Part shown: positions 1 through 47,923 of the stretch, piece after piece
How positions within the stretch are numbered: the stretch's first letter is position 1
How the letters are laid out: each line of letters opens with the position of its first letter
From: Geosiphon pyriformis uo1
Lineage: Eukaryota; Fungi; Glomeromycota
Direction: 5' to 3'
DNA length: 64,000 nucleotides
Assembly: GCA_016748015.1 (NCBI GenBank)
Contig: JAAOMT010000299.1
Location: 471,090 to 535,089, forward strand
Notes under the pieces: model-generated
Database searches by the model: none
What the model was told of the DNA's origin: nothing
The model's input: only the letters and a program-made list of their open reading frames with translations
Position numbers and translations under genes: made by a program

Positions 1-3000
1 ACAACAGAATCAATCCAAATAACCAGTTGGTTCCCCAAAATTCGGGCCAGCAAAGACCCAATCACTATTACACTCAACCCAGTTATCTTACAATACCAGA
101 GGAATCGGATTTTCAACAAACTGCACTTTTTGAAGGTGAAATTGCAGCCCCAAGATCAAACTTTTCCAACCACACCATTCCCCCAGCTCAAATTGCCCAA
201 AATGCTAATCTGTCAGATATATTTCCATTTGAATTTGAGGCAAATGAATCACCATTTCTGCTTAGTAATGCAGCAGTCAATAAACAGAAAGCAATTACTG
301 CCATGTACACAGAAGCTACAGTGGAAGGAAAACCCATTCACTTAATCTTAGATAGTGGATTAGCTGGAAGTATCATTACTTACCAGCTGATGCAACAACT
401 CAAATGAAACATAGACAGACCAGCTCAAACAGTTATTGTCACAGCTGATGGTATGAAGAAGACTCCAGTAGGAGAAATTGATGATTTCTCTTTTTCAATT
501 GATGGAATCACCATTCCAGTTAATGTTCTTGTTATGGATGCACCCCAATACCAAGCTCTAGTCAGAAATGATTGGCTTCTCAAGGCCAATGCAAACCTGA
601 ACTGGGAAACTCAAGAACTTAAAATCTTATACAAAGGACAATATACTATAGTACCTGCAACCTGTGATACCTTTAACAAACGATCAGAAAAAGCTCCAGT
701 ATTTGAATTTGAAGAGGAGAAAGAAATGCCACTTACTGAAACCTACATGGCTCTTGGATCAACATCCAATTGGGCTGAAGAAACTGAACAAAAGATTTTC
801 GAAGAATCAAGGGGATGGAAAAAAGTTAGATATTCTACACCAGAACCACAGAAACAACCATTCTATATTCCACTCAAATGCAAAGATTGCAACAAAAAAC
901 TTTTATTAATGGGAGCATGTATTTCTCCAGAAGAGGAATATGAAACTCGTACCTGTTACTTTTGCAAAGCATGCCATAGAGAACAATTTGGATCTCCAAA
1001 AAGAAGTAGAAAATGGGACAACACATCTTGCCTTACATGTGGAGAAATACTACCAGAAGAATGCAATTGGATTGATGTAGCAATGAGAAGAGGAGTATGT
1101 GATCAAACCTGTCAATATGCTCTATCAATTTCGGAAAAAGTCAGAAGAGGGACACCATTTGATGCAGCATACAACAGTGCTTTCAATAAACTTTATCACT
1201 ACCCTCATGATGCTGAAATGATTTTTGACCTAGCAATGGCATTAATCAATGGAGCCACTCAAAAAGATGTCTGCCAAATGAAAGAAGCTGAATATATTGA
1301 GTACACCATAAAATTAGCTGGATTTGATTATGAAGATGAAGTAGAAACCTACCACCAAATTGCAAGCCACACATATCCGACCAAAGAAGCTCAAATTCAA
1401 TGATTAGAGCAAATAAACATTCAATTGTGTGAAGAATATGTTATGCTTTGTGATGACCAATGGTGTTTAGAATGTTATGCTCTTAGAATTCCTCTGCCAG
1501 ATGAGAATAATGAAAATGAAATCGAATTTGGAGTATCTGAACAAGTAGAAGAACTACCAACCACTCCCATTTATCTTCTTGAAAAGCAACCACCTTTACA
1601 ACTTAAATATTTTGACAACCATGGCCAAGGAATCAGACCAGAAAAAGCACACGAAATTGATGCTGGATATGACTTGAGATACCCAGGAAAAGATACTTTG
1701 ATTCTCCAACCAAAGTCTTTGACAAAAATCAATCTAAAAATTGCTCTTGAAATTCCACCAGGAGCAATGGTTCAAATTGTCTCCAGATCATTATTGGTAA
1801 GCAAAGGAATTAATATTAGAGGAGGAGTTATAGATGCAGGATACACTGGAGACATTACCATCATGTTACAGAATGAAACAGACAAACCATTCAAAATTGA
1901 ACATGCTGAAAAAATTGCTCAAGCAATTTACTTACTCTTAATCAACATTTCGGGTTTACAATCAGTAAACAACAGAGAACAATTGAGAAAAAATGAAAGA
2001 GGAACTCAAGGTTTTGGTTCAACTGGACGATTTACAGTTCCAGTAAACATAGTTCTTAATACACAAAATGAATCTCACCAGATTCTTCAACTTCCTCAGC
2101 CAATTACCATTTCACCTTTTAGAAAACATTACGAAATTTACACTTGCTCAAAACCCACCACTACACAACAAATCTTTGAATCCAATGAACAAATCTGTTT
2201 GAAGCATGAAATATCAATTCCAAACGTTTATATTCCCAAAGGAATGAAAAAATTTTGAGTTACATTCTACAACCCCAATAATTACCCTATTGTTTTATTA
2301 AACAAATTAGAAATTGGAATCATACACAGCAATATCTTTCAAGATGAAAACTCTCAAATTGTCTCTAATTTCATCGAAATTATAAAGCACACTCTACTCC
2401 TAAATCCAAATATTATTCCCACTACTGAAAACTACCACTTGTTGAAAGAAAAACTCTCTCGAATCAATATGGGTTCCTTAGAACCTCAACAACAAAGACA
2501 ATTGAAACAATTGATAGCTGAATTTGCAGATATATTTGCAAAAGACAATAATAACTTGGGAAAAACAGACATTGTTCAACATCAGATCCATACAGGAGAT
2601 GCTCTACCAAAACATCAACAAGCTTATCGAGTGCCACCTGCCAGCCACCAATTTATCAGAGAAGAGATCCAAAGAATGCTCAATAATGGATTGATTCAAC
2701 CATCAAGAAGTTCTTGGGCCTCACCAGTAGTTTTGGTTAAAAAGAAAAACGGAAAAATTAGATTCTGTGTTGATTATAGACAACTGAATAGTGTTACAAT
2801 CAGAGATGCCTACCCTCTTCCAAGAATTGATGACATGCTAGATGCTCTGGGAAAAGCCAAGTTTTTTTCAACTTTAGACTTGGAAAGTGGATACTGACAA
2901 GTCGAAATAGATCCAAAAGATAGACCCAAAACAGCATTCACCACTCAAGGAGGAAATTATGAGTTTAATGTTATGCCTTTTGGACTCTGCAATGCACCAG

Positions 3001-3875
3001 CAACATTTCAGCGACTTATGAATGTTGTCTATGAAGGGCTCTTGTGGCAATCAGTAGTTGTTTATCTTGATGATACTAATATATACTCACCAAGCTTTGA
3101 AGCCCATCTCATTCACCTGCGAGAAGTTTTTCAATGATTACGGAAAGCAGGATTAAAGTTAAATATTGAGAAATGTCACTTTGGAAAAACAAGTTTGATC
3201 TTTCTTGGACACATAGTTAGTAAAGATGGAATCAAACCAAATCCAGGAACAATCAATGCTGTCAAAAACTTTCAAACCTCCAGAAATACTACAGAACTAA
3301 GAGGATTTGTGAAATTAGTCTCTTACTATCGAAAATTCATAAAAGGATTCTCAGAAATTGCCAAACCACTCAATTATCTTACCAACAAAAACGTACCATA
3401 CAAATGGACTGAAGAACAACAAAAAGCTTTTGAAATTCTTAAAACAAAATTGACAACAGCCCCAGTTCTTGCTTATCCAGACTTCAACAAACAATTCCAA
3501 TTAGCCACTGATGCTTTACACATAGCATTTGGTGCCATCTTATCACAATTGGATGAAAATGGCCAAGAACAAGTTATTGCTTATGCCAGCAGAACATTCA
3601 AGCCAACAGAACTCAAATATGGCTCAACTGAATTAGAAGCTGTTGCAGTTATTTGGGCTCTTAAACATTTTCAACAATATCTGAAAAATGGAAAAAAATT
3701 TGACATAATAACGAACAACATTGGCCTCAAATGGCTCAATAAAAAGAAAACTGAACAAAGTGCCAAACAGTCTCGATGGAATAACTTCCTAGCAGACTAC
3801 AGATATATTGTACACCACAAACCAGGAAAACTACATACCAATGTTGATAGCCTCTCAAGAATGAGACAAGATTAG
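1..3875 (+). pseudogene. Element A ORF1: end of Gag, aspartic protease, Cys-rich domain, dUTPase, RT, RNase H; several premature stops
   Basis: ORF pieces 27, 453, 1425, 2439 and 3195 are all in one frame, separated by single stops (e.g. TGA where R or W is expected). Motifs: [32 protein letters not shown]...GAILSQ, ending at DSLSRMRQD*. Confidence 0.93.
1602..2027 (+). other. Trimeric-type dUTPase domain within element A ORF1
   Basis: All five dUTPase motifs are present: DAGYDL, SRS, GGVIDAGYTGDI, KIAQAI, RGTQGFGSTG. Confidence 0.95.
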
Positions 3876-3932
3876 TACCAACAACAATCCCACCACAACT
3901 TACCAACTTACCAACAAAATAACCAAACAAGA

Positions 3933-5100
3933 ATGGATCTCAGAAACTACAGCAATCTTAAAAATTATTTGGAGACCTTTATTATGCCAGAAAACTGGTC
4001 TCCAAGTGAAAAACACCACTTACAACACCAATCAAAACAATATTTCATACACCAGAACAAAATTTATTATAAAAATCACAGAAAACCAAACCAGCCACTC
4101 AGATTAATACAAGAGAATGAAAAAGAAACAATTTTATACAATATGCACACAGATCCGTCTTTAGCACACTTGGGAAAAGAGGGAACAATTCAAAGAACCC
4201 TTGAACATTATTTTTGGCCTCACATGCAAAAAGACATTTGACAATATGTAGAATCTTGTAATAACTGCCAAAGAAGAGGAGAAACTCGCCCCACAGAACC
4301 TTTAAATCCAATCAAAGTTGGACAACCTTTTGACAGAGTTGGAATTGATTTAGTCAGACCATTACTTATCACAACCCAAGGAAATTGTTATATTGCAGTT
4401 GCAGTGGATTATCTTACCAAATGGCCTGAAGCTAGAGCCATCCAAAGAGCAGATGCAAAATCAGTAGCAAAATTCATCTATGAAGACATTATCTGTAAAC
4501 ATGGATGCCCAATTGAACTCTTATCTGATCAAGGAACACATTTTGTGAACAACTTGATACAAGAAATTTGTGAATGGTTCAATGTCAAAAGACCNNNNNN
4601 NNNNNNNNNNNNNNNNNNNNNNNNNNNNNNNNNNNNNNNNNNNNNNNNNNNNNNNNNNNNNNNNNNNNNNNNNNNNNNNNNNNNNNNNNNNNNNNNNNNN
4701 NNNNNNNNNNNNNNNNNNNNNNNNNNNNNNNNNNNNNNNNNNNNNNNNNNNNNNNNNNNNNNNNNNNNNNNNNNNNNNNNNNNNNNNNNNNNNNNNNNNN
4801 NNNNNNNNNNNNNNNNNNNNNNNNNNNNNNNNNNNNNNNNNNNNNNNNNNNNNNNNNNNNNNNNNNNNNNNNNNNNNNNNNNNNNNNNNNNNNNNNNNNN
4901 NNNNNNNNNNNNNNNNNNNNNNNNNNNNNNNNNNNNNNNNNNNNNNNNNNNNNNNNNNNNNNNNNNNNNNNNNNNNNNNNNNNNNNNNNNNNNNNNNNNN
5001 NNNNNNNNNNNNNNNNNNNNNNNNNNNNNNNNNNNNNNNNNNNNNNNNNNNNNNNNNNNNNNNNNNNNNNNNNNNNNNNNNNNNNNNNNNGAACACTTAA
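3933..5100 (+). pseudogene. Element A integrase, a separate ORF interrupted by an assembly gap
   Basis: ATG at 3933; HHCC zinc motif (MHTD..AH / CNNC); GIDLV, DYLTKWPEA and SDQG. The C-terminus ...NT* after the gap matches the integrase end of element E. Confidence 0.88.
4595..5090. other. Assembly gap (N run)
   Basis: 496 consecutive N. Confidence 1.
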
Positions 5101-5243
5101 ATTTTACAATAATTCTCTACTAAAAACACAAAGACAAAAATAGTAAATAATTACAAAACACCCAAACCCAAAAACAAATAAAAACCTCATATCCAAAAAA
5201 TAATTTTCTTTATTCTCTCTTTTCATAATTAGTCAATTTTATC

Positions 5244-5951
5244 ATGATTATTCCCCGAAATATTCAACAAATATCCCAAAAATTAATGTTAGCCTTGAAA
5301 ACACTCCCTGACTTATCTATAACAATTAATGGAAGTCAAATTAAATACATTCAGAAAGAAACCACAGCCCCAGTAGCAAATCATTTACAGAACTATCACC
5401 CCTATAGAAGAGAAACAAAAAGTCACTCTGAGAATAGATTACTAAGACTTTTGAAACAGGCACTAAAAGAAAATCTGCTAATTGCCCCTATTGACATTCC
5501 ACCAAATACTACAATACAACAAAAACTACTACTACTTCTTAATGAACAGAACAATGAACACACCCCTATCTATAGATACTTTCAAATTGGAAAAACACTT
5601 TATGAACGAAAACTGGAACTTGAAGCAACAAATCTTACTCTTGAAGTTATACAAAAACAAATCTACAATGAATTCAAAACAGCAGCTGAACCAACAAACA
5701 CTTGCTACAAACTTAGAGCAGCTTTTAGACTCTATGATTTGTTTAATACTTGTGAAAATGTTCTACAAAATCCAATACTGCAATCAATAAAAGTCCAATA
5801 CATTGGCAAACTCACAGAACTGAAATTTCAACAATTTTCAGACCAAATTACTTCAATCATTTTAGATCACTATCTCAATATTACAGATAGTGCTTGGACT
5901 TTGATGGAGCTTAGTCTTAAGGAGGAGATTATGTTACCAGTAGAATTTTAG
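5244..5951 (+). CDS. Element A ORF3, 235-aa protein of unknown function; intact frame overlapping the PPT and LTR start
   Basis: Open ATG-to-TAG frame; homologous ORFs sit at the same position in C, D, E and F. Confidence 0.8.
   Translation: MIIPRNIQQISQKLMLALKTLPDLSITINGSQIKYIQKETTAPVANHLQNYHPYRRETKSHSENRLLRLLKQALKENLLIAPIDIPPNTTIQQKLLLLLNEQNNEHTPIYRYFQIGKTLYERKLELEATNLTLEVIQKQIYNEFKTAAEPTNTCYKLRAAFRLYDLFNTCENVLQNPILQSIKVQYIGKLTELKFQQFSDQITSIILDHYLNITDSAWTLMELSLKEEIMLPVEF
5919..5931 (+). promoter_or_regulatory. Polypurine tract of element A
   Basis: AAGGAGGAGATTA immediately before the LTR TG. Confidence 0.85.
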
Positions 5952-6901
5952 CTATTAATTAACATGAAATTACCCTTATAATTCTTATAATTCATTAGTA
6001 TATTAATATCATTTCAAATTATCATTTATTATTTAATCAATTATCACATATCACGATTCAATTAAAATAATCTAATTAGTATAACAGAAAGTAAGATGAT
6101 CAAATTACACAATACTCTGAACTTTGTAACATTCAAAAATTCGCCGAAATTTACAGAAATTCGCCGAAATTATGAATAGTTCACCCAAATTAATCAATAG
6201 TTCAGCAAAATAACTTGTAGTTCATCAAAATGTATCTTTAGTTTGCCGGAATTTGGGCAAAGAAAAAAAGTGCAAGTTCATAAACTAGTACTACAACAAG
6301 TTGTATAAAAGAAGAGCTTTTCTCTTCTGGAAAATGTATCTTACTTTAGATTTATCACTTAGAACCATTCCTACACACACAAAAGAAATAAATATCAAAT
6401 AATTTGAAAAACCAAATTCTTTAATTATTACACTTGGAAAATCCCCAAAACCCAACTAACATTTTGAAATTGATTAGCTACCAATTTTAGTAAACTGTTA
6501 GTGACTTCAGGCTTGGATAAAAAACGTTTCTCTTGACAAAATTCTATTTCTTTTACATTTTTTTTATTTTTTTTTATTTTTCTTATTACAATCATTAGGG
6601 TAGCCTACAGACAAGATTCCTGTAAAAGAGTTGACTTTCACAGCAAAGTAACTACACATTTTTAGTGAGCTTCCAGATGAACAATTCCTGGGAAAGAGTT
6701 GACGTTTACTACAACATAACTACATAAAGTAACTGGCAAGAAATTGGCCATTCCACTTATAAGCCCAGCAGTTCAAATTATAAGAGATAATTTGAAAATA
6801 AATTCAGTTATTGGAGGTTCAACTACTTTCTGAAAATGTGAATTCACAGCAAATCAACATTACCAACATTTAAGAAAAGAGACCAAAAACCTCCAGTAAC
6901 A
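5932..6901 (+). repeat. 3' LTR of element A (970 bp)
   Basis: TGTTACCAG...CCAGTAACA termini; homologous to the LTRs of B and E in reverse complement. Confidence 0.95.
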
Positions 6902-9900
6902 GCACTAATTTTTCCAGGGTCCGGTTTGATTCCATCTTTACTAACGATATGACCAAGAAAAGCCAAGCTTGTTTTTCCAAAGTAGCATTTTTCGATGTTG
7001 AGTTTTAGTTCTGCTTTTTGTAATCATTGAAAAACTTCTTACAGGTGTTTTAAGTGTAATTCGAATGATGAAGAATAAACATCAGTATCGTTAAAATAAA
7101 CGACTACTGACTTCCAAAGAAGTTTTTGATACACAACATCCATTAATCTCTGAAATGTTGCTGGTGTATTGCATAATCCAAAAGGCATTACATTGAACTC
7201 ATAATTTCCACCTTGGGTGGTAAATGCTGTTTTGGGGTGATCTTTGGGATCCATAACAACTTGCCAGTAACCACTTTCTAAATCTAGCATTGAAAAGTAT
7301 TTGGATTTTCCAAGAGCATCTAACATGTCATCAATTCGGGAAAGGGAGTAGGCATCTCCAATTGTAACACTGTTGAGTTGTTAATAATCAACACAAAATC
7401 ATATCTTTCCATTTTTTTTTAATTAGCACTACAGGTGAAGCCCAAGAATTCATGGAGGGTTGGATAAGCCTGTTGTTAAGCATTCATTGTACTTCTTCTC
7501 GGATGAATTGGTGGCTTTCTGGAACAACTCGGTAGGCTTGTTGTCACCTTGGTTTGGCGTCTCCTGTGTAGATTTGATGTTGAACCAAATTGGTTCTTCT
7601 TAAGTCATTGTTGTTTTCGGCAAAGATATCAGCAAATTCTGCAATTAGTTTTTTGAGCTGGTTTTGTTGTTGTGGTTCAAGTTGTCTCATGTTGATTTAA
7701 GATAGTTTTTCTATGACAACATGGTAGTTTTCAAAGCTGAGATTTGGGTTGATTTTTGATAGTGAATGTCCAATAATTTCAGAAAAATCGGGGACTGTTT
7801 GGGGTAATTCTTGTTGAAATATGTTACTGTGAATAACTCTAATTTCTAAATTATTTAATAAAACTATGAGGTAATTATTGGGGTTGTAAAAAGTAACTCG
7901 GACTTTCTTTGTTCTTTCTGGAACATAAATGTTTGGGATCAAAATATTATGTTCTAAGCAGACTTGTTCATTGGACTCAAAAATTTGTTGTGTGGTTGTT
8001 GGCTTTGAGCAGGTGTAGATTTCCGGATGTTCTTCAAAGGGTGAGATGGTAATTGGTTGTGGAAGTCTGAGAATCTGGTGGGATTTGTTCTGTGTTTTAA
8101 GGGCTATATTAACTGGAACTGTGAATCATCCAGTTGAACCAAAATCTTGGGTTTCTCTATCACTTTTTCCTAATTGTTCTCTTTGATTAACTAGTTGCAA
8201 ACCCGAAATGTTGATTAGGGGTAGGTAAATAGCTTGGGCAATTTTTTCATGTTTGATCTTGAATGGTTTGTTAGTTTCATTTTGAAGCATTATTGTTATG
8301 TCTCCAGTATATCCAGCATCGATTATTCTTCCTCTGACATTGATTCCTTTGCTTGCCAGAGAGGACTGGGAGGCGATTTGAACCATTGCTTCTAGTGGAA
8401 TTTTGAGTGCAATTTTGAGGTTGATTTTTGTGAGAGATTTGGGTTTGAGAACAAGAGTATCTTTGTTTGGATATTTTAGGTCATATCCAGCATCAATTTC
8501 GTGTGCTTTTTCGGGTTTTATTCCTTGTCCATTGTTGTTGAAATATTTGAGTTGTAAGGCAGGCTGATTTTCGATAAGATAGATGGGTGTTGTTTCAATT
8601 TCTTCCATTGCTTTAGGTTCTTCAAATTCAATTTCGTTCTCATCACTTTTGCTGGGCAAGGAGATGCTAAGAGTGTAGCATTCAGGATACCACTGTTCAT
8701 TACAAGGCATAATGCATTCTTCACATAGCCTAATGTTCATTTGCTCTAATCATTGAATTTGAGCTTCTTGGGTTGGGTAGGTGTAACTTGCAATTTGGTG
8801 GTAGACTTCTACTTCATCTTCGTAATCAAATCCAGCTAATTCCATGGTGTATTCAATGTATTTTGCTTCCTTTATTTGACGGACATCTTCTTTGGTAGCT
8901 CTATTAATTAATGCCATTGCTAGGTCGAAAATCATCTCAGCATCATGGGGGTAGTGATAAAGTTTGTTGAGAGCACTGTTGTATGCTGCATTAAAGGGTG
9001 TTCTTCTTTTTACTTTTTCTGAAATTGATAAAGCATATTGGCAGGTCTGATTGCAGACTTCTCTTCTCATTGCTACATCAATCCAATTGCATTCTTCTGG
9101 TAGCATATCTCCACAAGTCAAATAAGGGGTGTTATCCCATTTTTCACTTCTTTTTATTAGATGGCCCCATCATTCTCTGTGGCAAGCCTTGCAGTAATAA
9201 CAAGTATGATTTTCATATTCTTCTTCAGGTGAAATACAGGCTCTCATTGATAATAGTTTCTTGTGGCAGTCCTTACATTTAAGAGGAATATAGGGGCATT
9301 GTTTCTTTGGTTCTGGCTTTGAGTATAGGATATTTCATCCAGAGGTTTCAGGTTCAGAGTGTGGTGTAAAATGTTCTTGTTTAGTTTCATCGGCCCAATT
9401 GGACATTGATCCAAGAGCCATGAATGTTTCAATTATTGGTTTTTCTTCTTCTGATTCAAATTCAAAAGCCAGGGCTTTTTCAGAGCATTTGTTAAATGTA
9501 CCACAAGTGGCAGGTACTTGGGCATGTTGTCCTTGGTAAGAGATTTATAGTTCTTGGGTTTCTCAGTCTAATTTTGCATTGGCTTTCTGGAGCCAATCAT
9601 TTCCGACAAGAGCTTAGTATTGGGGAGCATCCATGACCAAAACTTTGACTGGAATGGTGATTCCGTCAATTGTGAATGGAAAATTGTCAATCTCTCCTAC
9701 TGGAGTCTTTTTCATGCCATTGGCAGTAACAATGATTGTCTGAGCTGGTCGGTCAACATTTTTTTTAGCTGCTGCATCAATTGATATGTGATGATACTTC
9801 CAGCAGATCTACTGTCTAGGATCAAGCGAATTGACTTTTCTTTTACTTCAGCTTTTGTGTACATTGTAGTGATGGCTTTTTGTTCATTAGCCACTGCATT

Positions 9901-12919: not shown

Positions 12920-14728
12920 GCAGAAAAAGAAATTGTTGACCAAGGAGAAATTATCTCAATGGGTCAAACAATTTCTATTCCACCATATGGCCAATACATA
13001 ATAGGAATAAAGTGAAAGGTAAAAGAACAGAATCAGATTTTTGAAGCAGAACCAACCCTTTGTGAATTAGGAGAAATTGGATTTATCAATCTACACATAC
13101 CAGCCAAGAGCCATAACTATATCAAAATTTCTATCTACAACAACACTGGAAATATTGTAGAAATACCAGCCGGAACCACTATATGATACTTAAGCACTGA
13201 AATAGAGAATCAACTACCAAGCACCATTCTAAACTTTCCACAGTTTTGTGAATATGTCAATATTACATCACAAATGATATATGGACAAAGTGAAGGTTAT
13301 TTGCTCCAACCAGAACAATTGGAACAAATGAACATAGGAAACTTGGATCTATTCCAAAGTATGCAACTTAAGATGTTGCTCAACAATTTCAATGACATCT
13401 TTGCCAGCAAAAATGAGTTTGGCCGAACTGACATCATCCAGCATCAGATCAAGACTAGAGATGCAATGCCAATTAAACAAAGAGCATACAGAGTACCACC
13501 AGTTAGCCATGAGATTATTCGGTAAGAGATAAACCGAATGCTTGACAACGGGCTAATTCAGCCATCAATGGGCCCATGGTCATCACCAATGGTACTCATT
13601 TGTAAAAAGAATAAAAAGATCCACTTTTGTGTGGATTATAGAAAACTCAATGGAATAACTTGTGGAGATAGCTACTCCACTCCATGGATCCAAGAATTAT
13701 TCGATGCTTTTGGTAGAAACAAATAGTTTTCAACATTAGACCTAGACAGTGATTACTGGCAAGTAGCCATGGATCTAGCCAACAAAGAAAAGACAACATT
13801 CACCATCAGAGAAGGGAATTTTGAATTTGAAGTAATGCCATTTGGCTTAACCAATACACCAGCCACTTTCCAATGGCTAATGGAAATTGTTTATACTGGC
13901 TTATTGTGGAAATCAGTAGTTGTATACTTGGACGACACCAATGTATTCTCAAAAACATTTGATGATCATCTTTATCATCTTCAACAAGTGTTCGAAAAAC
14001 TAAGAAGAGCAGGACTAAAGTTAAATGCAACAAAGTGTTTTTTTGGTAAAACAGAACTAAAATTCTTGGAACACATAGTCAGCAAAAATGGCATCAAAAC
14101 GGATCCAGAGAAAATAGAGATAGTAAAGAACTTTCCAGTGCTGACAAATATGACAGAACTGAAATCATTCTTGGGATTCGCCAGCTACTATTGATGTTTT
14201 ATCAAGAACTTTTCCAAGATAGCGCAGCTACTCAACCAACTGCAAACCAAAAATACAAAATATGAATGGACAGAAAGTCAACAAAAAGCTTTTGATATTC
14301 TGAGAAGAAAGTTCATTTAAACTCCAGTACTGATCTATTCAGATTACAGCAAACTATTTATCATTACCACCAATGCATCTGGCCAAGCATTGAGAGCAGT
14401 ACTATCTCAGAGAGAACTAGACGGCAGGGAACATCTAATAGCATATGCTAGCAGAAGTTTAACACCAGCCGAAAAGAACTATAGAACACCGGAACAAGAA
14501 CACTTAGCGATATACTGAGCAGTCATGAAATGGAAAGAATACTTGAGCCAGAAGTTTGAGATGTATACAGATCACAAAGGATTAACATCACTCCAAAAAC
14601 AAGAATTTGGAGATGGAAGACAATCAAGATAGAAAATGGCACTTGCACTATATAATTATACAATACATTATAAAAAGGGAAAAGACAACAAAAATGCTGA
14701 CAGTTTATCACAAATGAGACAAATTTAA
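12920..14728 (+). pseudogene. Element C pol (linker, RT, RNase H), ending at ...MRQI*
   Basis: FCVDYRKLN, FEVMPFGL, YLDD, AYASRSL and NADSLS motifs, with stops. Confidence 0.92.
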
Positions 14729-14789
14729 GGACATTTCAACCCAAAAATATAACAAAACCAAAACAATACTCACAAAAATATAACAAAAG

Positions 14790-16172
14790 ATGAACACACA
14801 AAAATATTAACAACTTTAACATTATATAAATACTCAACAGTTCAAGGAGAATTTATCTCAAACGGAATGAAAGAGTATCAAACAACAATCAAAATATTTT
14901 ATCACTCACCAAAATATACTTTATCGGAAAAATAGAAGGGATCCAGATCAACCAACCAGAGTAATTACAGAGCCAGAAAAAGAGACCATATTATTTAACA
15001 TGCACTCAAATCTAACAGCAGAACATTTTCACAAAGAAGCAACCATAGAAAGAACCAGAAAAAGATACTATTGGCCATCAATATATCCAGACATCATTCA
15101 ATATATTCAAAATTGTGATGCTTGTCAAAGAAGAGGAAGAACAAGACCCAGCAAACCATTGAGACCAATCAAAATGGAACAATCATTTGATCATATTGGA
15201 ATTGATTTAGTTGGACCATTAACAATTACCAGCAGAGGAAACAGATACATAGCAGTAGCTATGGACTATCTCACTAAATGGCCAGAGGTAAAAGCAATTC
15301 AAAGAGCAGATGCAAAATCTGTTGCTGAATTCATTTATCAGGATTTGATTTGTTGACATGGATGTCCAAAAGAATTATTATCAGACCAAGGAACTCATTT
15401 TGTAAACAAAACATTAACAGAATTGAGCCAAAGATTCGGAATTAAGAGACCACTATTATCACCATACCATCCACAAACCAACAGATTAGTCGAAAGATTC
15501 AACAGAACATTGTATGAAGCAATAGCTAAGCTCAACCAAGAAAATCAGAACGATTAGAACATGTTGATACCATCAGTACTATTTGTTTATTGAACAATGA
15601 AGCAAGACACTACACAAGCAACACCATTTGAATTAGTATATGATAGAACAGCAACATTACCAGTGGAGATAGAGGTCAACACATATCTAACTGAACCAAT
15701 AACAGAAGAGAATTTCCAAGAAACATTGTTAAGAAGAACATATGACTTAATGGAAACAGTGGAAAACAAACGAAAAAAAGCAGCTGATAACATACAAAAG
15801 TTACAAAAGAAACAGAAAGAAAGACATGATAATCAACTACCAGACAAACCAGTTGAATTCAAGATTGAAGACAAAGTACTCTTATATTGTACCAAAGCAG
15901 AAAAACAATGGAGTAGAAAATTTGACTCCAAATAGGACAGACCATTTCACATAGAAGAAATTCTAGGAAATGGAGCTTACAAATTAAAACTGGACAACAA
16001 AATCTTAACCAAAGCAGCACATGGAGATCAACTGAAACCATACCACAACACCATACCACCATTTACCAGTAATATTCTACAATTAGAAGTACAGAGAATA
16101 CTAGTCCAACCAGATCAGATTCCACGAAATCTGTAACCAATCATTATTATTGACAACAACACGTCAAATTAA
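14790..16172 (+). pseudogene. Element C integrase (separate ORF)
   Basis: ATG at 14790; MHSN..EH / CDAC, GIDLVGP, SDQG, ERFN and a GPY/F-like C-terminal module. Confidence 0.9.
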
Positions 16173-17747: not shown

Positions 17748-20700
17748 ATGTCCAACTTTTGGACTTGTTAATACATGCTCTTAGATTATGTTAATAATGG
17801 TGTCTTTTTTGATGTGATAAAAAAGATTGATATAAAAGAATTGTCTTTGGTTGTTAATAATTTGCTAAATAATAAGACTGCCAGGTTGTCAGAGATACCT
17901 AATAAACTTTGAAAACATTGTGATAGTAAGATGTTAATTTATTATTTGAGGCTGTTGAATTTGTGTTTAATTTTAAGTAAAGTTCCAATTTCTTAAAAGA
18001 GAGCATAGGTTTCAATGATCCTAAAATTTTATAAATGGAATGGCATTTTGATAAATACTAAGTCTATTGCATTAATTGAAACAGCTTGAAAGATATTGTC
18101 TAAGATTTTTTTTGATAGAATCTTATTAGCATATAACAAATTTAATGTTCTTTATGATGATAATTTTTTAGTATTAAAAAGTACTTCAATTCAGTCTTCT
18201 ATTTTTGCCATTAGATCAATTGTTGAGAATGCTTTAGAAAAAAACAAAGAGCTTTGGTTAATATTATAAAATATGTACAAAGCTTATGATTTGGTAAACT
18301 GATATTATTTGAAGACTAATTTGCACTATATTAAGATATGTAGTTAGTTTATCAGATTTTTTGGCAGTATTCATGAAGATCAGATCAATAAAATAATAAC
18401 AAATTTTGAATTCTTAAATAATTATAAAGTACATGATAACTTGGATCAGAATGAGGTTTTTTTTTTACTTTTTTGGAGGATTTTTTATAATCCACTTTTG
18501 TATAAAGTGAGAAGACATAAACATTTGTGTAGATATTGTATTGATACTAGATTTGTGGCAAAAACTAACAGGTTTAAGACTATTAAAGGAAAGATTTTCT
18601 TTTTAGCAGCTGATGTTTTTATTGATGATACAATTTGAGTTAAAAGTTGTTAAGCTTTTATATAATATATTTTAAATATTGTTAATAAGTTTTTTGATAT
18701 TAATAATATTTTAATTAATAATGATAAGACAGTGGCTATTTTTATCAATCAAGGTGTTAAGTATGTATTTCTGTTAATTAATGATTTATCTATCTTAATT
18801 GCTAAAAAAAATAAATTACATAGATATTTGGGTATTTTTTTATTTACTGAGGATTTTTTTAAGTCTAGTTTGGCTTAAACTTATGCAAATATTAGGTTTT
18901 TTTTTAATGTGCTATTAAAGAAAGCTATTATGAATAAACAATTTTTTTATTTGGTTTCAGCTGTTCTGCAGTTTATAGTTAGCTATTAAATACAGTTTAG
19001 TTTTGTTTCAGTGGGTGTATGTTGCAAATAAGATGTAATAGTCAGAAAGTGTCTTAAGACCAAAACTGGTCTATTACATGACTTTTTTAATAAGATTTTG
19101 TATTATTCATTACTGTATAATTTAAAATCTTTTAAGCAAGTGCAGTTTAAGAAGAAGTTGGCTTTATTGGTTTTTTTTCCAATATTTGTGACATTCTTAG
19201 ATGTTTTTTTAAGCATAAATTTTTGGATCTGCAGGTTTTGGTGTGGTCTTCTTTAAATTTTTTACAGTTTTTTATTAAATTGTGTGTTAGTTCTATGAAT
19301 AATTTCTTGGCTGGTGCAGTGAAAATTTTTTTGGAAAATAAATTGTTTTTGACAAACCACTTGTCTAATGCCTTTTACAAGTTAAATAAGTTTCTGATGT
19401 CTAACATCTTAGAACAACTCTTGTATTACAACTCTGTTTTTTCTTTAAAACAGTTTGGTATTAGGTTTGGTAATAGACTTCTGGACAAAAAAAAAATATA
19501 ATGGACTGGAAAACATTTCAGTGGTGGAAAAAATTGGATTTAAAAGGCCTTGTGTTTTACTGATTTATGCTAACACTTGATTTTATGAGCAAAAATGGTT
19601 TTTTGCAGACCAAGTCTGCTGTTATTTCTAAATTGCCTGTGCTGAATGTCTTGAAATTCAAGCAGTTTTGTAATGTTCATAATTATTTATTAGAAATTTG
19701 GTCTGATTGTATTGAAGTCTATACAGATGGGTTTTTGAAAGATACTGGTTCTATTGAGATAACATATGAAATGGCTGCTTATTTTTTGGCTGCAGATGTG
19801 AGTGTTGGAATTAGAGTATATAGGCTTTTATCTTCTACTTTGACTGAATTGCAAGCTGTTGCTTTAGCTTTGGAGTGTGTTTTGTTTTTATGTGCTGTAG
19901 TTCTGTATTTGGATAGCCAATCTGCAATTAATGCTTATGTATCTGAGACTTTGTTTGCAGTATCTGATTTCTGTAATCAATGTTAAATTGGATAATTGCA
20001 TATAATTAATCTTATTAGGGATAAAAACATTTTGGTTAAGTAAGTAAAAGTTAAAAAACATTCAGAAATTCTAGGCAATATTAAGGCTAATAAACTGGTT
20101 GACAAAACCACTTCTTTTTCTTGTTCTTTGCAAGTAGAGATTTGAGAATGGTTTTTGGTTACTAAGAATACTGTTGTGTTTAGTAACATTTATCATTTTG
20201 TTTGTAATCTGTACTGTTCAATTTGCCATGCTTATTAAGAAGCTGGTTCTGGTTTTAGTGTTGTTCTGAGTGTTATGATCAGGAAAATAGATTGGGCTAC
20301 TATTATGATAATTTGGCATTCTAATTTGTATATGCTTTCTGAATTTACTAGTAGAAAATTGGCTAATCTATATACATATATAATGAAAGCAGTACATAAA
20401 TGACAGTTAATAACAGTTAAAAAGAGATTATATAATAAGAATTATCTTGAAGTACTGTGCTTATTATATGACAAAGTAGAGTTGTCTGACCATGTTTTTA
20501 CTTGTTTTAGTAATATTGGTCTTCATGAAGACATTTTTGCTAAAACTACTAAGAAGTAGATATTATTAAAAGATTTTTTTGCTTGCCTACTTCTGCTGTT
20601 TTGCATTTACTTTTGATGTGTGCTTTGAATGTGATTCTGTACACTATAATTTACAAAGGCTTTGTGTTAAGAGATTGATATGCTAAGACTGTTCTGGTCT

Positions 20701-21125
20701 TTGAGGAGAAAAAAAAGACTTTTCTAATTTTGGTTAAATATGTTTAGTTTGTGATAGAGTTATATTACACTAAAGTGTAGTTAATTAGATCTAAATATAA
20801 GGTAAATATAGAAAAAGTGGGTTTGATCAAGGATAATGGCTTGGTTGTGAACTTATTTTATTGTGTAGTGTCTATATTGTTAAATGAAATAGTTTATATG
20901 CTTAGTATTATGAAATTTTTTCTATTAGTTTTGGTAAACATAAGTTGTGTCATTTCTTTTTTGGTTTAAATAGTGATGTTTTTATTAGTATAGATATATA
21001 ATATTGTTTTAACTGGCCTGAGTGGCTGGCTACATATAGTTAATATATAAGCTGTATTTAATTTGATTCTATATACTAGATAGCAGTTGGGCTTTATTTA
21101 TTAAATCTTATAATAATAATAAAAA
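17748..21125 (+). mobile_element. Non-LTR retrotransposon LINE-1, 3' part of ORF2 (RT, RNase H, C-terminal Cys/His motif), 3' UTR and (TAA)n/A tail; heavily decayed
   Basis: Collinear with LINE-2 ORF2; FIDDT, VYTDG, TELQAVALAL, DSQSA and DHVFTC motifs; shared 3' UTR motif GG(C/T)CTGAGTGGCTGG. Confidence 0.9.
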
Positions 21126-23818
21126 TTATATAGTTATTTTGTAATAAATATCAATTTTTTACAGAAATTTTTTGTTTATAAGCTTTTCAAAATATTAATA
21201 ATTATTTTGTTGTAAAAATCAACTCTTTTATAAAAAGTTTTAACTATAAACTATTTAATAATATGAAAAAATAAAAAAAAATAAAAAATAAAAAATGTTT
21301 AAAAAAGTTATTTTCAGTTTAAACTTAAAAGTTTTTAATAATTATTAAAATTAATAACTAATTAATTTTAAATTATTAAGTATAATAAGTAATATCAAAA
21401 CAATAATAATTAAAAATTTTTGTGTTTTCAAAATAAAATTTATTAAATTAATTTATAATAGCTAATTATTAATTTTTATTAAGATAGAAAATAAAAAATA
21501 TATTCTAATAAAGATATATTTTCTTAAAAAAAAACTTTTTTTTATACAATTTATTATAGTACTATTTTATGCTTTAATACTTTTTTTTTGATTATTTTAG
21601 CAAATTAAAAATATATTTTATTAAATTTTAAATATTATATAGTTTAAAAAATATATAATCTAATTATTACAATTTAATTATATTTGTGTTTTTTACAAAT
21701 TAGATTATTAATTAAATTATAATTTGTTAATTTTAATAAAATAATAAATAATAATTTGAAATAATAATATATACTAATTAATAATAAAAATTATAAAAGT
21801 AATTTTATGCTAATTAATAGTTCAAATTTTTGCTAATAATACTAATTACTTAAGCCAATTAAAACAATATTACTTAATTATATCTATTATTATATTTTTA
21901 TTTAAATTACAAAAAAAAACAAGATTTATGCAAACCAAAATTAATTGTAAATGTTTTAACAATACTAATTATATAAATTATACTTTTTAAAAACCTAACA
22001 AACAAATAATTTTATAAATATAATATAATATTATCATTACTTACTAATTTATTTAATTTTTTTATTACTTTAAATTTAGATCTATATATTTAAATTTTAT
22101 TTTTGTAATTTATAACTAATTAATAAACAAAAATTATTAACTTATTATCTATTTATTTTATATTTTCAAAACTAAAGCAATATTATTATACTAATTTTTT
22201 AAAATTATTTTTTTGTAAATAATAATATACAAATTATTATTAAATACACTAAAAATTAATATTTACAAAACAAATAATAATAAAACACAAATATTAGTTA
22301 AAGTTTTCTAATAATTAATGTGTTTTAATAAAATATTTTTACATTTTTTAAACATATAAAAACATAATTTAAAAATTTTATTTCTGTATAATATAAATAT
22401 TAAACATCTAAATACAATTTATTATAAACTTTTTTTTTAATTGTTATTTATAAAACTAAAAAACATATGTGAATTAAAATATTATACTAATGTTGTATAT
22501 TTTTAATTTATGTTTTAAATAAATAATCTAATTATTATTTTTAAACCAAAATTTAATTTTCAATAAACATATATTACAGATTTATATATATTTTTAATAA
22601 AATGCTAAATATTTTTAAAAACAATATATTTATTTGTCAAAATATTTATTTTCAAACAAAACAGAAAAGTATAAGAATAAAAAAGTTATTTTATCTATAA
22701 ATATATCTATTTTCTTATTTTTATTAATTTTAAAATAATTTTAAATTTTAAATTATATAACTAAAATATTTTTATTATTTAATAAATTAGTTATATGCTG
22801 TTTTTTAATCTAACAATAATTATAAAAATTTAAAACAATTAAGTAAAATTTAATATTATAAATATTTAAAGCTATTTAATTATTTAAATAAATTCTTATT
22901 ATATTAAATATATATTTTTTATTAAGTTTTATGAGTGCAGTTCAATTACTACTTAAAAACATACAATCAAAAAAGATTTTAAATTAAGTATGATTTATGT
23001 TTTTTCTACATATAATCAGTTACTCAAGTTAATTAAAACAATACTATACACTTATATTACTCACTACAGAAAAGTTCTGCATAAAACCAAAATACAAACT
23101 AGTTAAAAAAATATGTAGTTCAAAACAAACATGTATATTCAATCTAATACCAAAATTATAAATTATTTTAAGAGTTTACAAAAACAATAAATCCAAAATA
23201 GATAAAATAATTAATCTATTATAAAACAAGAGACCACATCTTTTATAATGTGTTCTTAGTTATATGTCTAGCAATCAAATAGCAACTCTATAACTTTCAA
23301 CAAAATTCCAAACCAAATTAATAACTATCATATTACTATTAAATTTAACATCTAACAAATATACTATTTTAGTCATCTATTTCTTTAATACAAAGTTTTT
23401 AGCCAGTAATATATATAAGCAACTAAAAAATTCAATCTTATATAAAGATCAGATTACTTTATAATTAGCAGCACAAGCACTCAGCAAATCAATTTATTTT
23501 TGAATAGTGTTTAAGATTAGGTTTTTTCTAATATAATTGTTATAAATATATAAAAATATGTAATCAGAGTTTTTGATTAGTCTACACTAAATACATAATA
23601 TACTAAAATAATTTAAGTTATATAGTCTTTTTTTCTTGGCTACAGATAAATAGTAATATAAGATCTTTATAAAGTAGAATCAAAATATTGCAAAAACAGA
23701 GCTAATAAAACCAAATTTAACATAATTATTAGAATATTATATGTTAAAGATTTTGTACATATTAAAAAGATTATAAAACATCATATTTACAGTACTATTA
23801 ATGCATTTGGATTTTTAG
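21126..23818. other. Extremely AT-rich degenerate DNA, probably an old repeat relic
   Basis: Almost no G/C over 21126-22930, no long ORFs; slightly more complex from 22930 to 23818. Confidence 0.6.
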
Positions 23819-24261
23819 TATTACAGATAATTATTTGGAGTCTTAAATCAAATAACAAAACTTGTAACTTGGTGCTCAGAAGCTATTTACAATAATGGTA
23901 ATCTGAAGGTATTGTTATCTGAAGGTTTTTTGTTGAGTTTTTTGTATAATGAACAGAGATTCAATAGTTGTTTATCTATAGCTTCCCAGAATCACAATTC
24001 TGTCAATTTCTTTTTTTAGCTTAATGGTTAGTACTCTTCTGGTAAGTAATTTGTAATTCTTTTATATGTTTTACTTACTCACAGAGGTCTTTTATCAGGC
24101 AATCCTTGACATCAATAACTCAGTGCTTTAATCTTTTAATCGATTAGTACACAACAAAAGAAAAATAAAAAGAAAATAAAAAGAAAATAAAAAAAAATAA
24201 AAAAAATAAAAATAAAGAAATAAGCTAAGATGATAAAAGTTAATATCTCATCAATAATTGT

Positions 24262-28000: not shown

Positions 28001-30853
28001 GGGACAAGGAATCATGCCTCACTTGTGGAGAACCATTACCAAGAGAGTGCAACTGGAATGACATACTAGGCAGAAAAAGAACATGTAATGCAACTTGCCA
28101 ATACATGATTCTCATTTGTGACTGGATAAGAGGAGGAATGCTATTTGAAACAGCATTCAACAGAGCATTAAAAAGACTACAGTACTACTCACATGATGAG
28201 AATGAGTTATACAACACCACACAAGCCAAAGTAAGAGAAGGAACTGCCGAAGAAATATGACATTGGAAAGTGTCAGCTGAAATAGCCAACAAAGTTGCCA
28301 ACTACAACATGTTCGACCCAGTGGATGAATTCCAGGAAAACTACTAACAGCTATGCCCCACTTGCCAAGAGCAAGAACAGTATCTCGCCCAGATTAACAC
28401 TTACCTTTGCGAAGACTGTCTTATTCCATGCCAAAGTCAGTGATGTGAAGAGTGTCAATACAAAAAGGACTTAGAAAGAAAAATGAAAATTGAGAATCAG
28501 CAGTACCAAAATCAATCAATAAATCAACAAAACTCACCTGACAGTTCTGAGTCAAAAAATATTTTAGCCTATACCGATCTAGATCAGAAGATCAGCATCC
28601 AGTACTATGACAATGGGCACTTAAGAATAGTACCCGAAAGAGCCCATCCAACTGACACTGAATTCGATCTACAGTATCTGGAAGACCAATTCACAACATT
28701 GCCACCCAGGAGTATTACTAAAATCAACCTAAAAATAATGATTGAAATTCTGCCAGGAATAATGGTCTAAATAATGTTATGATCAAGCCTTGCGAAAAAA
28801 GGAATAAGCATTTAAGGAGGAGTAATTGACTCCAGCTATACTAAAAATTTGATAGTTTTGCTACAGAACAATTCAGAAAAATCTTATACCATTAAATCTA
28901 AGGAGAAGATTGCACAAGCAATTTTTCTACTATTAGTAAAAATTGGGAAATTTGTGCCAGTAGAAAATCGTGAGAAATTGATACAAACAATAAGAGAAAC
29001 TTTTGGTTTCAGATCAACAGGAAAATAAATTGAAGCAAATTTTGCTGAAACAATAGAAGAAAAAGGCAAATTAATTAAAACTAAGTGGTCAATTACACTC
29101 ATGCCTTATGGAAAATCAGAAATTAAAATAAAAAGAACAATAAAAGATATAAATCTAATATTTGAGCCCCACCCAAAAACTTGCCAACAGTTTTCTATAG
29201 GACTTACTAACCTTTTTATTCCAGCTAACAAAACACAATGGATAAAAATTCCTATCACAAATACCACAGAAGAGCTCATATACATTCCAGAAAACACCAT
29301 CATGAGATACCTTGGAACAGAACTAGAAAATGCATTAACACCACAAGAAATTCTAAATTTCCCAAAAATTGCCCTTTACTGTGAACTCACTTCAATAAAT
29401 TGGCAACAACCATTGGAATGCTATCAATTTACACCAGAAGAATTGGCCAAATTAAACATTGGAACAATAAATCCGGACCAACAGCAACAATTAAAAGCAT
29501 TAATTTTAAAATACTCTGATATATTTTCATGAAATGGTGAATTTGGAAAAACCAACTTGGTTCAACACCAAATTCCCACTGGGAATGCCAGACCTGAAAA
29601 ACAACGCACTTACTATGTCCCACTAATAGAGCATAATTTTATCAGAGAAGAAGTCCAAAGCATGTTAAAAAAAAAATAATTCAACCATCAATAAGCCCAT
29701 GGTCTTCACCAGTTGTTTTAATAAGAAAAAAAACAGAAAAATTAGTTTTTGCATCGACTATTGCAAACTAAACAGCAAAACAACCAAAGATTCATATCCA
29801 ATATCATTAATTGACAAAATCTTCAATGTTTTTGGAGGAGCAAAATGGTTTTCTACACTTGACTTGACCAGTGGATACTGGCAAGTAGAAATGGACCCAA
29901 AAGACAGGCATAAAACAGCATTCACAACACAAAATGGCAATTATAAGTTCAATGTAATGCCATTTGGATTGACAAATGCTTCCATAACATTCCAAAAACT
30001 AATGAACATAATTTACTCTGGAATTTTGTGGTAATCCATTGTTGTCTACTTGGATGATACAAATGTTTTCTTGCCAAAATTTGTGGATCATCTCCAACAT
30101 TTACAACAAGTTTTTGAGAGATTGAGACATGCTGGACTTAAATTAAATTTAGAAAAATGTTTCTTTGAGAAAAATAAGTTAGCATTTCTAGGAGACATAG
30201 TTAGAAAAGATGGAATAAAACCAGATCCATCAAAAATAGACAAAGTAAAAAATTTTCCAGTACCTCGAAACATTTCAGAAGTTAGAGGCTTTTTAGGACT
30301 TACATCTTACTACTGCTGCTTTGTAGAAAACTTTTCAAACATCGCCAAACCTCTTAATTATCTATTATCTAAAAATGTGAAATTTGAATGGACCAAAACA
30401 CAGCAAAAAACTTTTGAGTACCTTAGGCAAAAGCTTATTGAATCACCAATAATAATCTATTCAGATTTCAACAAGAAATTCATTTTGGCCACAGATGCCT
30501 CTGGAATGAGACTTGAAGCCATTTTGTCACAAAAAGATGATAATAGAAGAGAATGTGTAATCACTTATGTCAACAGAAGTCTCAGTACAGCAGAGCAAAA
30601 CTATACAGCACATGAACTTGAATGCTTAGCAGTAGTCTGGAGTTGTGTTCACTTTGACACATACTTATGGTACAAACTCTTTGATATTACTACAGATCAT
30701 AGAAGTCTGGTCTGGTTAAATAACAAAAAAACACTAAAAGGAAAATACACCAGATGGTTACAAATATTAGCACCATACAATTATATCATCAAATACAAAG
30801 AAGGTACCAAAAATGCCAATGCTGACTGCTTGTCATAAATAAGACACACATAA
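25057..30853 (+). pseudogene. Element D ORF1: Gag (CCHC knuckle), PR, Cys-rich domain, dUTPase, RT, RNase H; start approximate
   Basis: CHFCK..GH...C, LILDSGS, CLTCG/CQY, RAHPTD.EFDL, KIAQAI, LDLTSGYWQ, YLDD, TDASG and NADCLS motifs, with many stops. Confidence 0.9.
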
Positions 30854-30884
30854 AAACCATCAAACAACAACCAATTCATAAACA

Positions 30885-32264
30885 ATGAACAATTATCTTT
30901 ACAAAAAGCTTAGCCAATACTTGAGAATACTATAGCTAAATGAAAATACACTGATAAAAGAACTAATTAAGTTCCAGAAATTATTAAAACATTATTTTAT
31001 TCAAAACCACATACTTTATTATCAGAATCAACAAAATCCAGATAATCCATTGAGAGTTATAACCGAAAATGAAAAAGAAACCATCTTATTTAACATGCAC
31101 TCGAATATCCATTCAGGCCACTTTGGAAAAGAAGCAACTATTCAACATACAACTAGTCATTATTATTGGCCAAAAATGCACTCAGATATTATTCAATACA
31201 TAAAAAATTGTGACCTATGCCAACAAAGAGGAGGAACAAAAACAACAGAACCACTAAGACCCATAAAAGTTGGACAACTATTTAATAAAATTGAAATTGA
31301 TTTAGTTGGACCATTACCAATAACAGCAAGAAACAATTGTTATATTGTAGTAGCAATAAATTACCTCACTAAATGGCCAGAAGCTAGAGCCATTCAAACA
31401 ACTGATGCTATATCTGTAGCCCACTTTGTACATGAAGATTTAATTTGCCATTATGGATGTTCACAAGAATTGTTGTCAGACCAAGGGACACATTTTGTAA
31501 ACAGTACACTAAATAAACTCAGCCAAAGATTTGGAATTAAATGACCACTATTATTACCATACCACCCCCAAACAAATGGATTAGTTGAATGGTTTAACTG
31601 TACACTATGTGAAGCATTAGCCAAAATCAGCAATGAACATAAAAAAGAATGGGATTTGTTCATACCAGCAGTTTTATTAGCATATAGGACATTAAAACAA
31701 AATACTATATAATTCACACCATTTGAATTGGTTTATAGAAGAAAAGCCATATTACTAATTAAACTTACTATTCCAACTTATCCAAATGAAATTATTATAG
31801 AAACAATATTTCATAAAACAATACTTAGAAGAACATATGAGTTAATGGAAATTTTGGAGAACAAAAGAAGAAAAGCAGCTCAAAATATTGAACAGTCACA
31901 AGCACAACAAAAAGTAAGACATGATAACCAGTTACCAAATAATATAATTAGCTATAAAATAGGAGACAAAGTATTGTTGCATCACACCAAAGCAGAAAAG
32001 CAATAGAATGAAAAGTTTGACCACAAGTGGGATGGACTATTCTATATTCATGAAATACTTGGCAATAAAGCATACAAGTTAAGACTAGATAAGAAAATTT
32101 TAAAAAAAGCAGCACATGACAACTGGCTGAAATTATATTACAACAAACCAGTAATAACAACATAAACACTTAGAATTGGAACACAAATACTACTAGTATT
32201 ACCAGATCAGATTCCGCGAAATTTAGAACCAGTAGTTTTAATTGAACATTATATAAAAAAATAA
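30885..32264 (+). pseudogene. Element D integrase (separate ORF)
   Basis: ATG at 30885; MHSN..GH / CDLC, IDLVGP, SDQG and C-terminal IPRNLEPVV. Confidence 0.9.
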
Positions 32265-37237: not shown

Positions 37238-37267
37238 CTTTTGTTATATTTTTGGGTTGAAATGTTT

Positions 37268-44192: not shown

Positions 44193-44196
44193 CTGC

Positions 44197-47802: not shown

Positions 47803-47923
47803 TATAAGCAATTTGAAATAACAGAAAATTATTTTTGGTGTATGGGTTTTTATGTTATTTTTGTTTTGTTTTTGTGAGATTGTTTCTAATTTATAAGAAG
47901 ATAACTATAATAATAAATTTAAA

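Follow-up and report, generated by a model that had tools for sequence, protein, structure and literature searches.

A fungal Ty3/Gypsy clade in which integrase is predicted to be a separate cistron behind a conserved RNase H stop codon

In models of retroviruses and long terminal repeat (LTR) retrotransposons, integrase (IN) enters the particle within Gag-Pol, from which the protease (PR) then releases it, with the ratio of reverse transcriptase (RT) to IN fixed at 1:1; in Ty3 and in retroviruses, the linker between RNase H (RH) and IN is the site where the protease separates RT/RH from IN. We analyzed a 64,000-nt stretch of the genome of Geosiphon pyriformis uo1 (GenBank assembly GCA_016748015.1, contig JAAOMT010000299.1, positions 471,090 to 535,089 of the forward strand; hereafter, the window), AT-rich eukaryotic DNA (16–41% GC per 2-kb segment) made up of nested, decayed Ty3/Gypsy copies. 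A tblastn search of the window with the RH-IN read-through of one of these, copy A, found five copies (A, C, D, F and E) that contain both RH and IN. In each of them the open reading frame (ORF) that encodes RH ends at a stop codon, which is followed by a short spacer and a new IN start. We consider it very likely, from the comparisons reported below, that IN is a separate cistron in these elements, and that the fixed stop, the untranslated spacer and the IN start of its own are a property of the lineage and not a product of decay.

The window elements resemble canonical Ty3/Gypsy elements (Metaviridae) in their LTRs, their Gag with Ty3-capsid and CCHC domains, their PR-RT-RH-IN order and their IN with H2C2, rve and SH3 domains, but differ from them in that IN lies outside the Pol polyprotein and in the lack of a chromodomain. 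LTRs bound the coding region of element E, and the order Gag-PR-RT-RNase H-IN, with the Pfam domains RVT_1, RT_RNaseH, Integrase_H2C2 and rve, was found in copies A and E and in three metagenomic relatives (L012, L015 and L025); copy A translated through its stops gives PR, dUTPase, RVT_1, RT_RNaseH, Integrase_H2C2 and rve in order. What we did not find, in 5/5 window copies or in 58/59 metagenomic loci, where the frames vary, is an IN that forms the C-terminal part of Pol or Gag-Pol for release by PR. Human LINE-1 has a bicistronic RNA in which ORF1 and ORF2 are separated by a short inter-ORF spacer with stops, and ORF2 is translated by unconventional reinitiation without need of an AUG. Like the window elements, it combines a retroelement RNA, two long ORFs and an untranslated spacer of tens of nt; unlike them, it is a non-LTR element whose split lies between an RNA-binding protein and an enzyme. 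In DIRS/Ngaro elements, foamy viruses and hepadnaviruses, the recombinase (the tyrosine recombinase of DIRS) or the whole Pol is made separately and reaches the particle by an interaction of its own, but in those cases a tyrosine recombinase is involved or the split separates Gag from Pol, whereas here only the DDE integrase leaves RT-RH. The dUTPase that the window elements have between PR and RT is also known from some basidiomycete families (PosPlaTy3-5 type; PMC2864245), and stop/restart translation is documented for ORF A/B of the fungal virus CHV1, for CP/RdRp of the fungal virus HvV190S and for ORF1/2 of SART1 (UAAUG; PMC10275272), the CHV1 ORF A/B junction also being UAAUG (PMC2699510). 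The clade described here shares with these stop/restart systems a long upstream ORF, a downstream start at or near the stop, any frame relation and fungal hosts, and relatives within it have the same TAATG or overlaps of 8–20 nt; the window elements differ from them in their 30–61-nt spacers, in that no upstream structure was found, in being LTR retrotransposons and in the product, IN. No Ty3/Gypsy element whose IN has an ORF to itself was found to be described in the open full-text literature that was searched (including PMC5911963, PMC4427930, PMC2582038, PMC3248453, PMC13468544, PMC13465315 and 10.1101/2021.03.30.436303), which does not extend to Repbase and subscription journals.

An earlier note on this DNA, made from the window alone, had placed the RH stop a few codons behind the DxLSR motif in all five copies, and this was borne out: in a DNA alignment the RT-RNase H frame closes four residues past the motif, in the same column in 5/5 copies, with the predicted peptide ends that the note had given (SRMRQD*, MRQI*, RHT*, MRQI* and SRMRQN* in A, C, D, F and E; * marks a stop). 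Its description of the spacers as A/C-rich, unstructured and 57, 61, 31, 30 and 52 nt long, with M-N/D behind them, was likewise correct. The five spacers are 80–91% A+C and 0–5% G, where the adjoining 600 nt of coding sequence have 60–65% A+C; all five are free of ATG, and their minimum free energies (MFE) of folding are 0 to -1.4 kcal/mol. IN starts with M-N/D...Y..L..YL, the beginning of the integrase N-terminal extension, the ATG being replaced by ATA in F. RH and IN share a frame in A and F, and IN is shifted to +1 in C, D and E, whose spacers of 61, 31 and 52 nt are 1 mod 3, in agreement with the statement that three of the five are not multiples of three. The claim that spacers cannot be aligned between families held in part only: those of A and E are partly alignable at the DNA level, and the C spacer equals the F spacer plus about 31 nt, which makes C and F one family, within which the frame therefore differs. 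No consistent GT...AG is visible by eye in the five junctions, as had been reported. Every copy has further stops or frame breaks besides the RH stop, and in D and F, which are also decayed just upstream of the RH stop, another stop takes the place of the R codon in DxLSR.

The same junction recurs in soil metagenomes, from which we took the DNA around 80 relatives. For 59 loci the contig includes the IN start, and in 58 of them ATG occupies the position homologous to IN residue 1, with an in-frame stop 1–76 codons upstream; the single exception (L038) has ATA. In the alignment, M occupies this column in only 1/22 fused relatives, which usually have R, K or Q there and the motif Q|R-x-D-P-x-L at this position. 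Both ends of the junction, RH stop and IN ATG, were located in 36 loci, and 30 of these were used for spacer statistics; the six left out as decayed or mis-assigned had apparent stop-ATG distances of 365–943 nt, and one of them, L026, belongs to the same family as L027, whose spacer is 62 nt. Stop-to-ATG distances in the 30 loci were -20, -14, -14, -11, -8, -8, -1, 2, 24, 27, 28, 39, 41, 48, 48, 62–97 (twelve loci), 136, 162 and 163 nt, with a median of about 48–62 nt. Stop and start overlap by 1–20 nt in seven loci (TAATG in L023, at -1), and a single locus, L039, has a 2-nt spacer. The stop is TAA in 19, TGA in 6 and TAG in 5 loci. RH and IN have no fixed frame relation: it is 0 in 9 loci, +1 in 14 and +2 in 7. 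Several relatives have T-rich spacers (T48% in L003, T53% in L040, C38/T43% in L044), and the CA-rich spacer is a trait of the window's sub-lineage, not of the clade. The arrangement is also found in an intact element, L012, in which a 1621-aa Gag-PR-RT-RH ORF is followed after a 69-nt gap by a 424-aa IN ORF that begins at ATG (426 codons stop to stop) and by a 162-aa ORF.

We searched 5.8 billion proteins with the copy A RH-IN read-through, with X at its stops, and obtained 460 hits, 120 of which were listed and classified. Split proteins made up 89 of the 120: 77 consisted of IN only (mostly 400–432 aa, 45–53% identity) and 12 of RT/RH only, ending 2–11 residues past DxLSR (47–57% identity). 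The other 31 contained both RT/RH and IN and were all at most 42% identical, so that among the 120 listed of 460 every relative with at least 45% identity is split. Of the 77 listed IN-only proteins, 54 start with M[DENS]xxx[YF] and six more with MDL(E/K)T, by eye at the same residue (60/77), while most of the remaining 17 start at a Met about 18 residues further in, of MPTxL type. The only named relatives among the matches listed are from Rhizophagus irregularis and R. clarus, at no more than 57% identity; split elements of R. irregularis are intact. A separate search of representative proteins returned, in its best 150 hits, mainly long fused or multi-copy polyproteins (29–44% identity), which dominate there because two-domain hits score higher; no relative closer than the split ones was found among these 150. 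Hits with an alignment break at residue ~242 proved to be canonical fused proteins with variable linkers of 20–90 aa. In the fused relatives a poorly conserved linker of 20–90 residues joins DxLSR to the IN N-terminal extension, and the comparison shows that the split elements have, in place of this variable linker, a stop, an untranslated spacer (30–61 nt in the window; relatives range from -20 to +163 nt) and a conserved ATG whose -3 position is a purine. We also noted a public Rhizophagus clarus gene model, P0014, that joins RH to IN by skipping 38 residues, which include DxLSR, the stop, the spacer and the IN start; its junction is probably a gene-prediction artefact caused by the split architecture.

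A tree of IN sequences with 79 rows (53 split, four window copies and 22 fused) grouped the four window copies with 52 of 53 split rows in one clade, with a support of 81 in the Shimodaira–Hasegawa-like approximate likelihood-ratio test (SH-aLRT). Just outside it lie L077 and two fused rows with long branches. A tree in which all 57 split rows were forced together had a higher likelihood (+4.28; approximately unbiased test, p-AU 0.58), and on this evidence the split elements can form a single clade. The four window copies make up a starred sub-clade of their own, with 59–75% IN identity between window sub-lineages. Taken at the sequence level, the elements are evidently a large fungal Ty3/Gypsy clade with integrase as its own ORF. 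The ratio of nonsynonymous to synonymous substitution rates (dN/dS) of the IN ORF was 0.11–0.26 in 6/11 pairs of related loci, dS being saturated in the other five, and these estimates show the ORF to be under purifying selection.

Within family E, fixation of the junction was assessed in contigs of one DNA run, which is probably the source sample and hence not independent, and which samples all genome copies. When 87 contigs were aligned to the E junction at at least 80% likeness and variants counted at a share of at least 2%, only two variants appeared, both in the spacer (49322 and 49342). No variant at that share affected the stop or the ATG in the 87 contigs, nor did an indel alter the 52-nt spacer, although contigs lose rare variants, and rare open copies of family E may have gone unseen. 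The earlier note had held that an open RH-IN frame in consensus or youngest copies would overturn its proposal; the family E copies, which retain the stop, the ATG and a spacer of non-triplet length, did not overturn it. In the same run, 8627 short contigs match 48600–50200 at at least 80% likeness; this number for 1.6 kb indicates that family E is highly repeated. Copy E differs from the contigs mostly by transitions (G>A at 105, C>T at 76, A>G at 55 and T>C at 41 places).

How IN would be translated is less clear-cut than the architecture. We propose, as close to an even call, that ribosomes terminating at the RNase H stop reinitiate at the IN ATG. After termination, 40S subunits would remain on the RNA, move through the AUG-free, unstructured spacer, or a few nt back where the ORFs overlap, and initiate at the first AUG, which is the IN start; the IN dose would be set by translation and not by protease release, and IN may join the particle or the cDNA in trans. 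We favour termination-reinitiation because stop and start are close or overlapping, the spacers are ATG-depleted and unstructured, the start context is good, and there is precedent in fungal viruses and SART1. In the relatives' 22 spacers of at least 10 nt, 6 ATGs were observed compared to 17.8 ± 4.0 in shuffles, and 17/22 have no ATG at all compared to 10.7 expected. A purine is present at -3 of the IN start in 53/58 loci (A in 42), compared to 56% at other ATGs, and the first 90 nt after the IN ATG are less prone to fold than shuffled sequence (mean z +0.66).

Several points weigh against this proposal. The P value of the ATG depletion (0.0004) is too optimistic, the test having used mononucleotide shuffles and phylogenetically related loci, and in the window G-poverty alone explains the ATG-free spacers. 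Viral stop/restart cases need an upstream cis element, a termination upstream ribosome-binding site (TURBS) or a pseudoknot, that tethers the 40S subunit, and eukaryotic ribosomes normally reinitiate poorly once they have translated more than 1000 codons. No excess or consistent structure was found in the 90 nt preceding the stop (mean z -0.10, 30 loci), and no RNA structure was conserved upstream of the stop, within the spacer or downstream of the ATG. Spacers of 30–61 nt are longer than a classical overlapping stop/start; a restart codon that overlaps or nearly touches the stop occurs in none of the window copies, and in the clade in the 7/30 loci with an overlap and the one with a 2-nt gap. 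The six loci with apparent spacers of 365–943 nt, if real, are at odds with tight coupling. A subgenomic mRNA with its 5' end at or before the spacer would account equally well for the depletion of ATG and for the favourable Kozak context.

This last reading, that IN is made from its own subgenomic mRNA, is possible but somewhat unlikely. The mRNA could start at a promoter inside the RH region or result from splicing of the 5' leader to an acceptor near the spacer, as for retroviral env; stop and spacer would then be no more than the 5' untranslated region of the IN mRNA. Any capped mRNA start would show a conserved ATG in a favourable Kozak context, a leader poor in AUG and in structure, and weak folding downstream of the ATG, and the variable frame relation fits equally well; in addition, a third ORF follows IN at a similar short gap in L012 and L027 and in window copies A, E and D, which recalls the nested subgenomic expression of retrovirus-like elements. 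Splicing, however, would need an intron of 4–5 kb, whereas fungal introns are typically tens of nt long; the copy D spacer has no G and hence no AG acceptor, and no pyrimidine tract or branch-like motif is common to the five spacers. The closeness of stop and ATG, including the overlaps of 1–20 nt, is left unexplained.

Direct recruitment of 40S subunits to an A-rich, unstructured spacer, in the manner of poly(A) or A-rich leaders or of the (CAA)n omega element of tobacco mosaic virus (TMV), appears improbable. The composition of the window spacers (51–60% A) and their near-zero folding energies are what internal entry would predict, but the whole coding strand is A-rich anyway and there is no structured internal ribosome entry site signal. 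The earlier note had suggested a (CAA)-rich, omega-like leader; relatives with T-rich, 2-nt or overlapping junctions mean that a CA-rich spacer cannot be the conserved mechanism.

Recoding, in which stop readthrough or frameshifting would give an RH-IN fusion as in canonical Pol, could draw on copy A, with its single in-frame TAG and open 57-nt spacer, and on the prevalence of 1 mod 3 spacers, the commonest class (14/30 loci and 3/5 window copies). All three frames occur, however; the spacers of C and F hold a second stop in the RH frame, and these two copies of one family differ in frame. An internal ATG would need no conservation, yet it is present in 58/59 loci while M is found in 1/22 fused relatives. 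These three lines (the variable frames, the second stops and the conserved ATG) exclude readthrough and frameshifting as a general route, and we give recoding very little credence. Hardly more credible is a short intron over stop and spacer that would join RH to IN in frame. P0014 makes such a join by its 38-residue skip, but it deletes DxLSR and the IN start and is otherwise fragmentary. GT is absent from the C junction and present in D and E only in the CLS/SLS codons, 2-nt spacers or overlaps in relatives leave no room for an intron, and the conserved ATG would be unexplained. The missing GT in C and the 2-nt and overlapping junctions exclude a short intron; in-frame splicing, which the earlier note had named as fatal to its proposal, did not refute it, since neither C nor D can accommodate a GT...AG intron. 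Least probable of all are ordinary nonsense mutations in dead copies, or chance: all five copies have other stops or frame breaks, so that the window alone, on which the earlier note had relied, cannot separate design from decay, D and F have a stop in the LSR codon and copy E differs from the contigs mostly by transitions, but the note's conclusion holds through outside data, as the same column is struck in 5/5 copies, family E reads contain no stop variant at a share of at least 2%, and intact ORFs under selection elsewhere show this arrangement too (58/59 loci and 89/120 listed proteins).

Extending termination-reinitiation to the whole element, we tentatively suggest, as a possibility that sequence comparison brings into view, that the clade gave up proteolytic IN release for a polycistronic RNA, Gag-PR-RT-RH / IN / ORF3, with reinitiation after an ORF of 1,100–1,600 codons over AUG-free spacers of up to ~160 nt, a lower IN dose of its own and joining in trans. 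IN might then need another way into particles, as the earlier note had also supposed. A selected clade with a separate IN raises the questions of how IN is dosed, by which route it reaches the cDNA and whether it can serve other copies in trans. Should reinitiation prove to be the route, the clade would be a small natural model in which to study how fungal ribosomes restart after very long ORFs; if the proposal is true, an LTR retroelement would for the first time have its integrase translationally uncoupled, and would provide a natural eukaryotic model of long-ORF reinitiation without a known tether. Gene predictors and transposable-element annotators that expect a fused Pol will call such elements broken or invent introns, as P0014 exemplifies.

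Table 1 Features of the Ty3/Gypsy copies in the window, numbered from its first nucleotide (* marks a stop codon)
Feature	Position	Strand	Details
Copy A, RH frame end (Gag-PR-dUTPase-RT-RNase H)	3138-3875	+	stop TAG 3873-3875; motif DSLSR, end SRMRQD*
Copy A, spacer	3876-3932	+	57 nt; A51 C35 G2 T12 %; no ATG; MFE -1.3 kcal/mol; RH and IN in frame
Copy A, integrase	3933-4594	+	ATG 3933; MDLRNYSNLKNYLETF...; Integrase_H2C2 + rve; in-frame TGA 4239-4241; ends at N run 4595-5090
Copy C, RNase H end	14000-14728	+	stop TAA 14726-14728; ..DSLSQMRQI*
Copy C, spacer	14729-14789	+	61 nt; +1 frame; A59 C21 G5 T15 %; no ATG; second stop in RH frame
Copy C, integrase	14790-15452	+	ATG 14790; MNTQKY..; decayed
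Copy D, RNase H end	30122-30853	+	stop TAA 30851-30853; ..DCLS*IRHT*
Copy D, spacer	30854-30884	+	31 nt; +1 frame; A58 C29 G0 T13 %; no ATG, no AG
Copy D, integrase	30885-31547	+	ATG 30885; MNNYLY..; decayed
Copy F, RNase H end	37268-37996	-	stop TAA 37270-37268; ..DGLS*MRQI*
Copy F, spacer	37238-37267	-	30 nt; no ATG; second stop in RH frame
Copy F, integrase	36580-37237	-	start decayed to ATA 37237-37235; frame break
Copy E, RNase H end	49362-50096	-	stop TAG 49364-49362; ..DCLSRMRQN*
Copy E, spacer	49310-49361	-	52 nt; +1 frame; A60 C31 G4 T6 %; no ATG; MFE 0
Copy E, integrase	48650-49309	-	ATG 49309-49307; MNSENYNNLKQYLETL..; H2C2 + rve
Copy B (E family)	6898-7023	-	truncated; first 42 residues only; without RH-IN junction
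Element E, whole	46134-55773	-	LTRs, Gag, dUTPase, RT/RH, IN, ORF3
Element E, LTRs	46134-46881 and 55026-55773		~750 bp; 85-95% alike in three repeat blocks found
Element E, Gag	53268-55085	-	Ty3-capsid + CCHC domains
Element E, dUTPase	within 50742-52247	-	Pfam E = 7e-20; between protease and RT
Element E, RT	49743-50408	-	
Element E, SH3_Tf2-1 part	47927-48325	-	downstream of E integrase 48650-49309
Copy A, dUTPase	1638-2030	+	Pfam E = 3e-20; between protease and RT
ORF3, copy A	5229-5951	+	240 aa; short gap after IN; without Pfam match
ORF3, copy E	47086-47787 or, by a second delimitation, 47101-47808	-	short gap after IN
ORF3, copy D	32350-32973	+	short gap after IN

Besides the RH stop, copy A has four in-frame stops, all TGA (1401-1403, 2256-2258, 2895-2897 and 4239-4241). 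An alternative genetic code of the ciliate type, in which TAA and TAG are read as Q, was ruled out: these other stops of copy A are TGA, and the other copies still shift frame. The end of the copy A integrase is concealed by an assembly gap of 496 N (4595-5090). Between the elements lie stretches of 16–20% GC, at 20001-24000 and 44001-46000.

The ORF3 of copy A is 64% identical to that of E, 31% to that of D and 33% to one metagenome locus (L006:2735-3124). The third ORFs behind IN in two metagenomic relatives (L012:6338-6826 and L027:5842-6333) have 162–163 aa, are unlike the window ORF3 and have no Pfam match. The metagenome relative L077 has a dUTPase likewise placed between protease and RT (L077:778-3855, Pfam E = 9e-24). 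In one sub-clade the RT-RH ORF extends about 215–345 residues past DxLSR with no Pfam match to the added part (L012:4047-4925; also L027, L030, L037, L040 and L045). Two loci have a lone in-frame stop between Gag-PR (943 and 1031 aa) and RT-RH (493 and 521 aa), at L015:2882-2884 and L025:3290-3292; these related and otherwise intact elements would consist of three cistrons, Gag-PR / RT-RH / IN.

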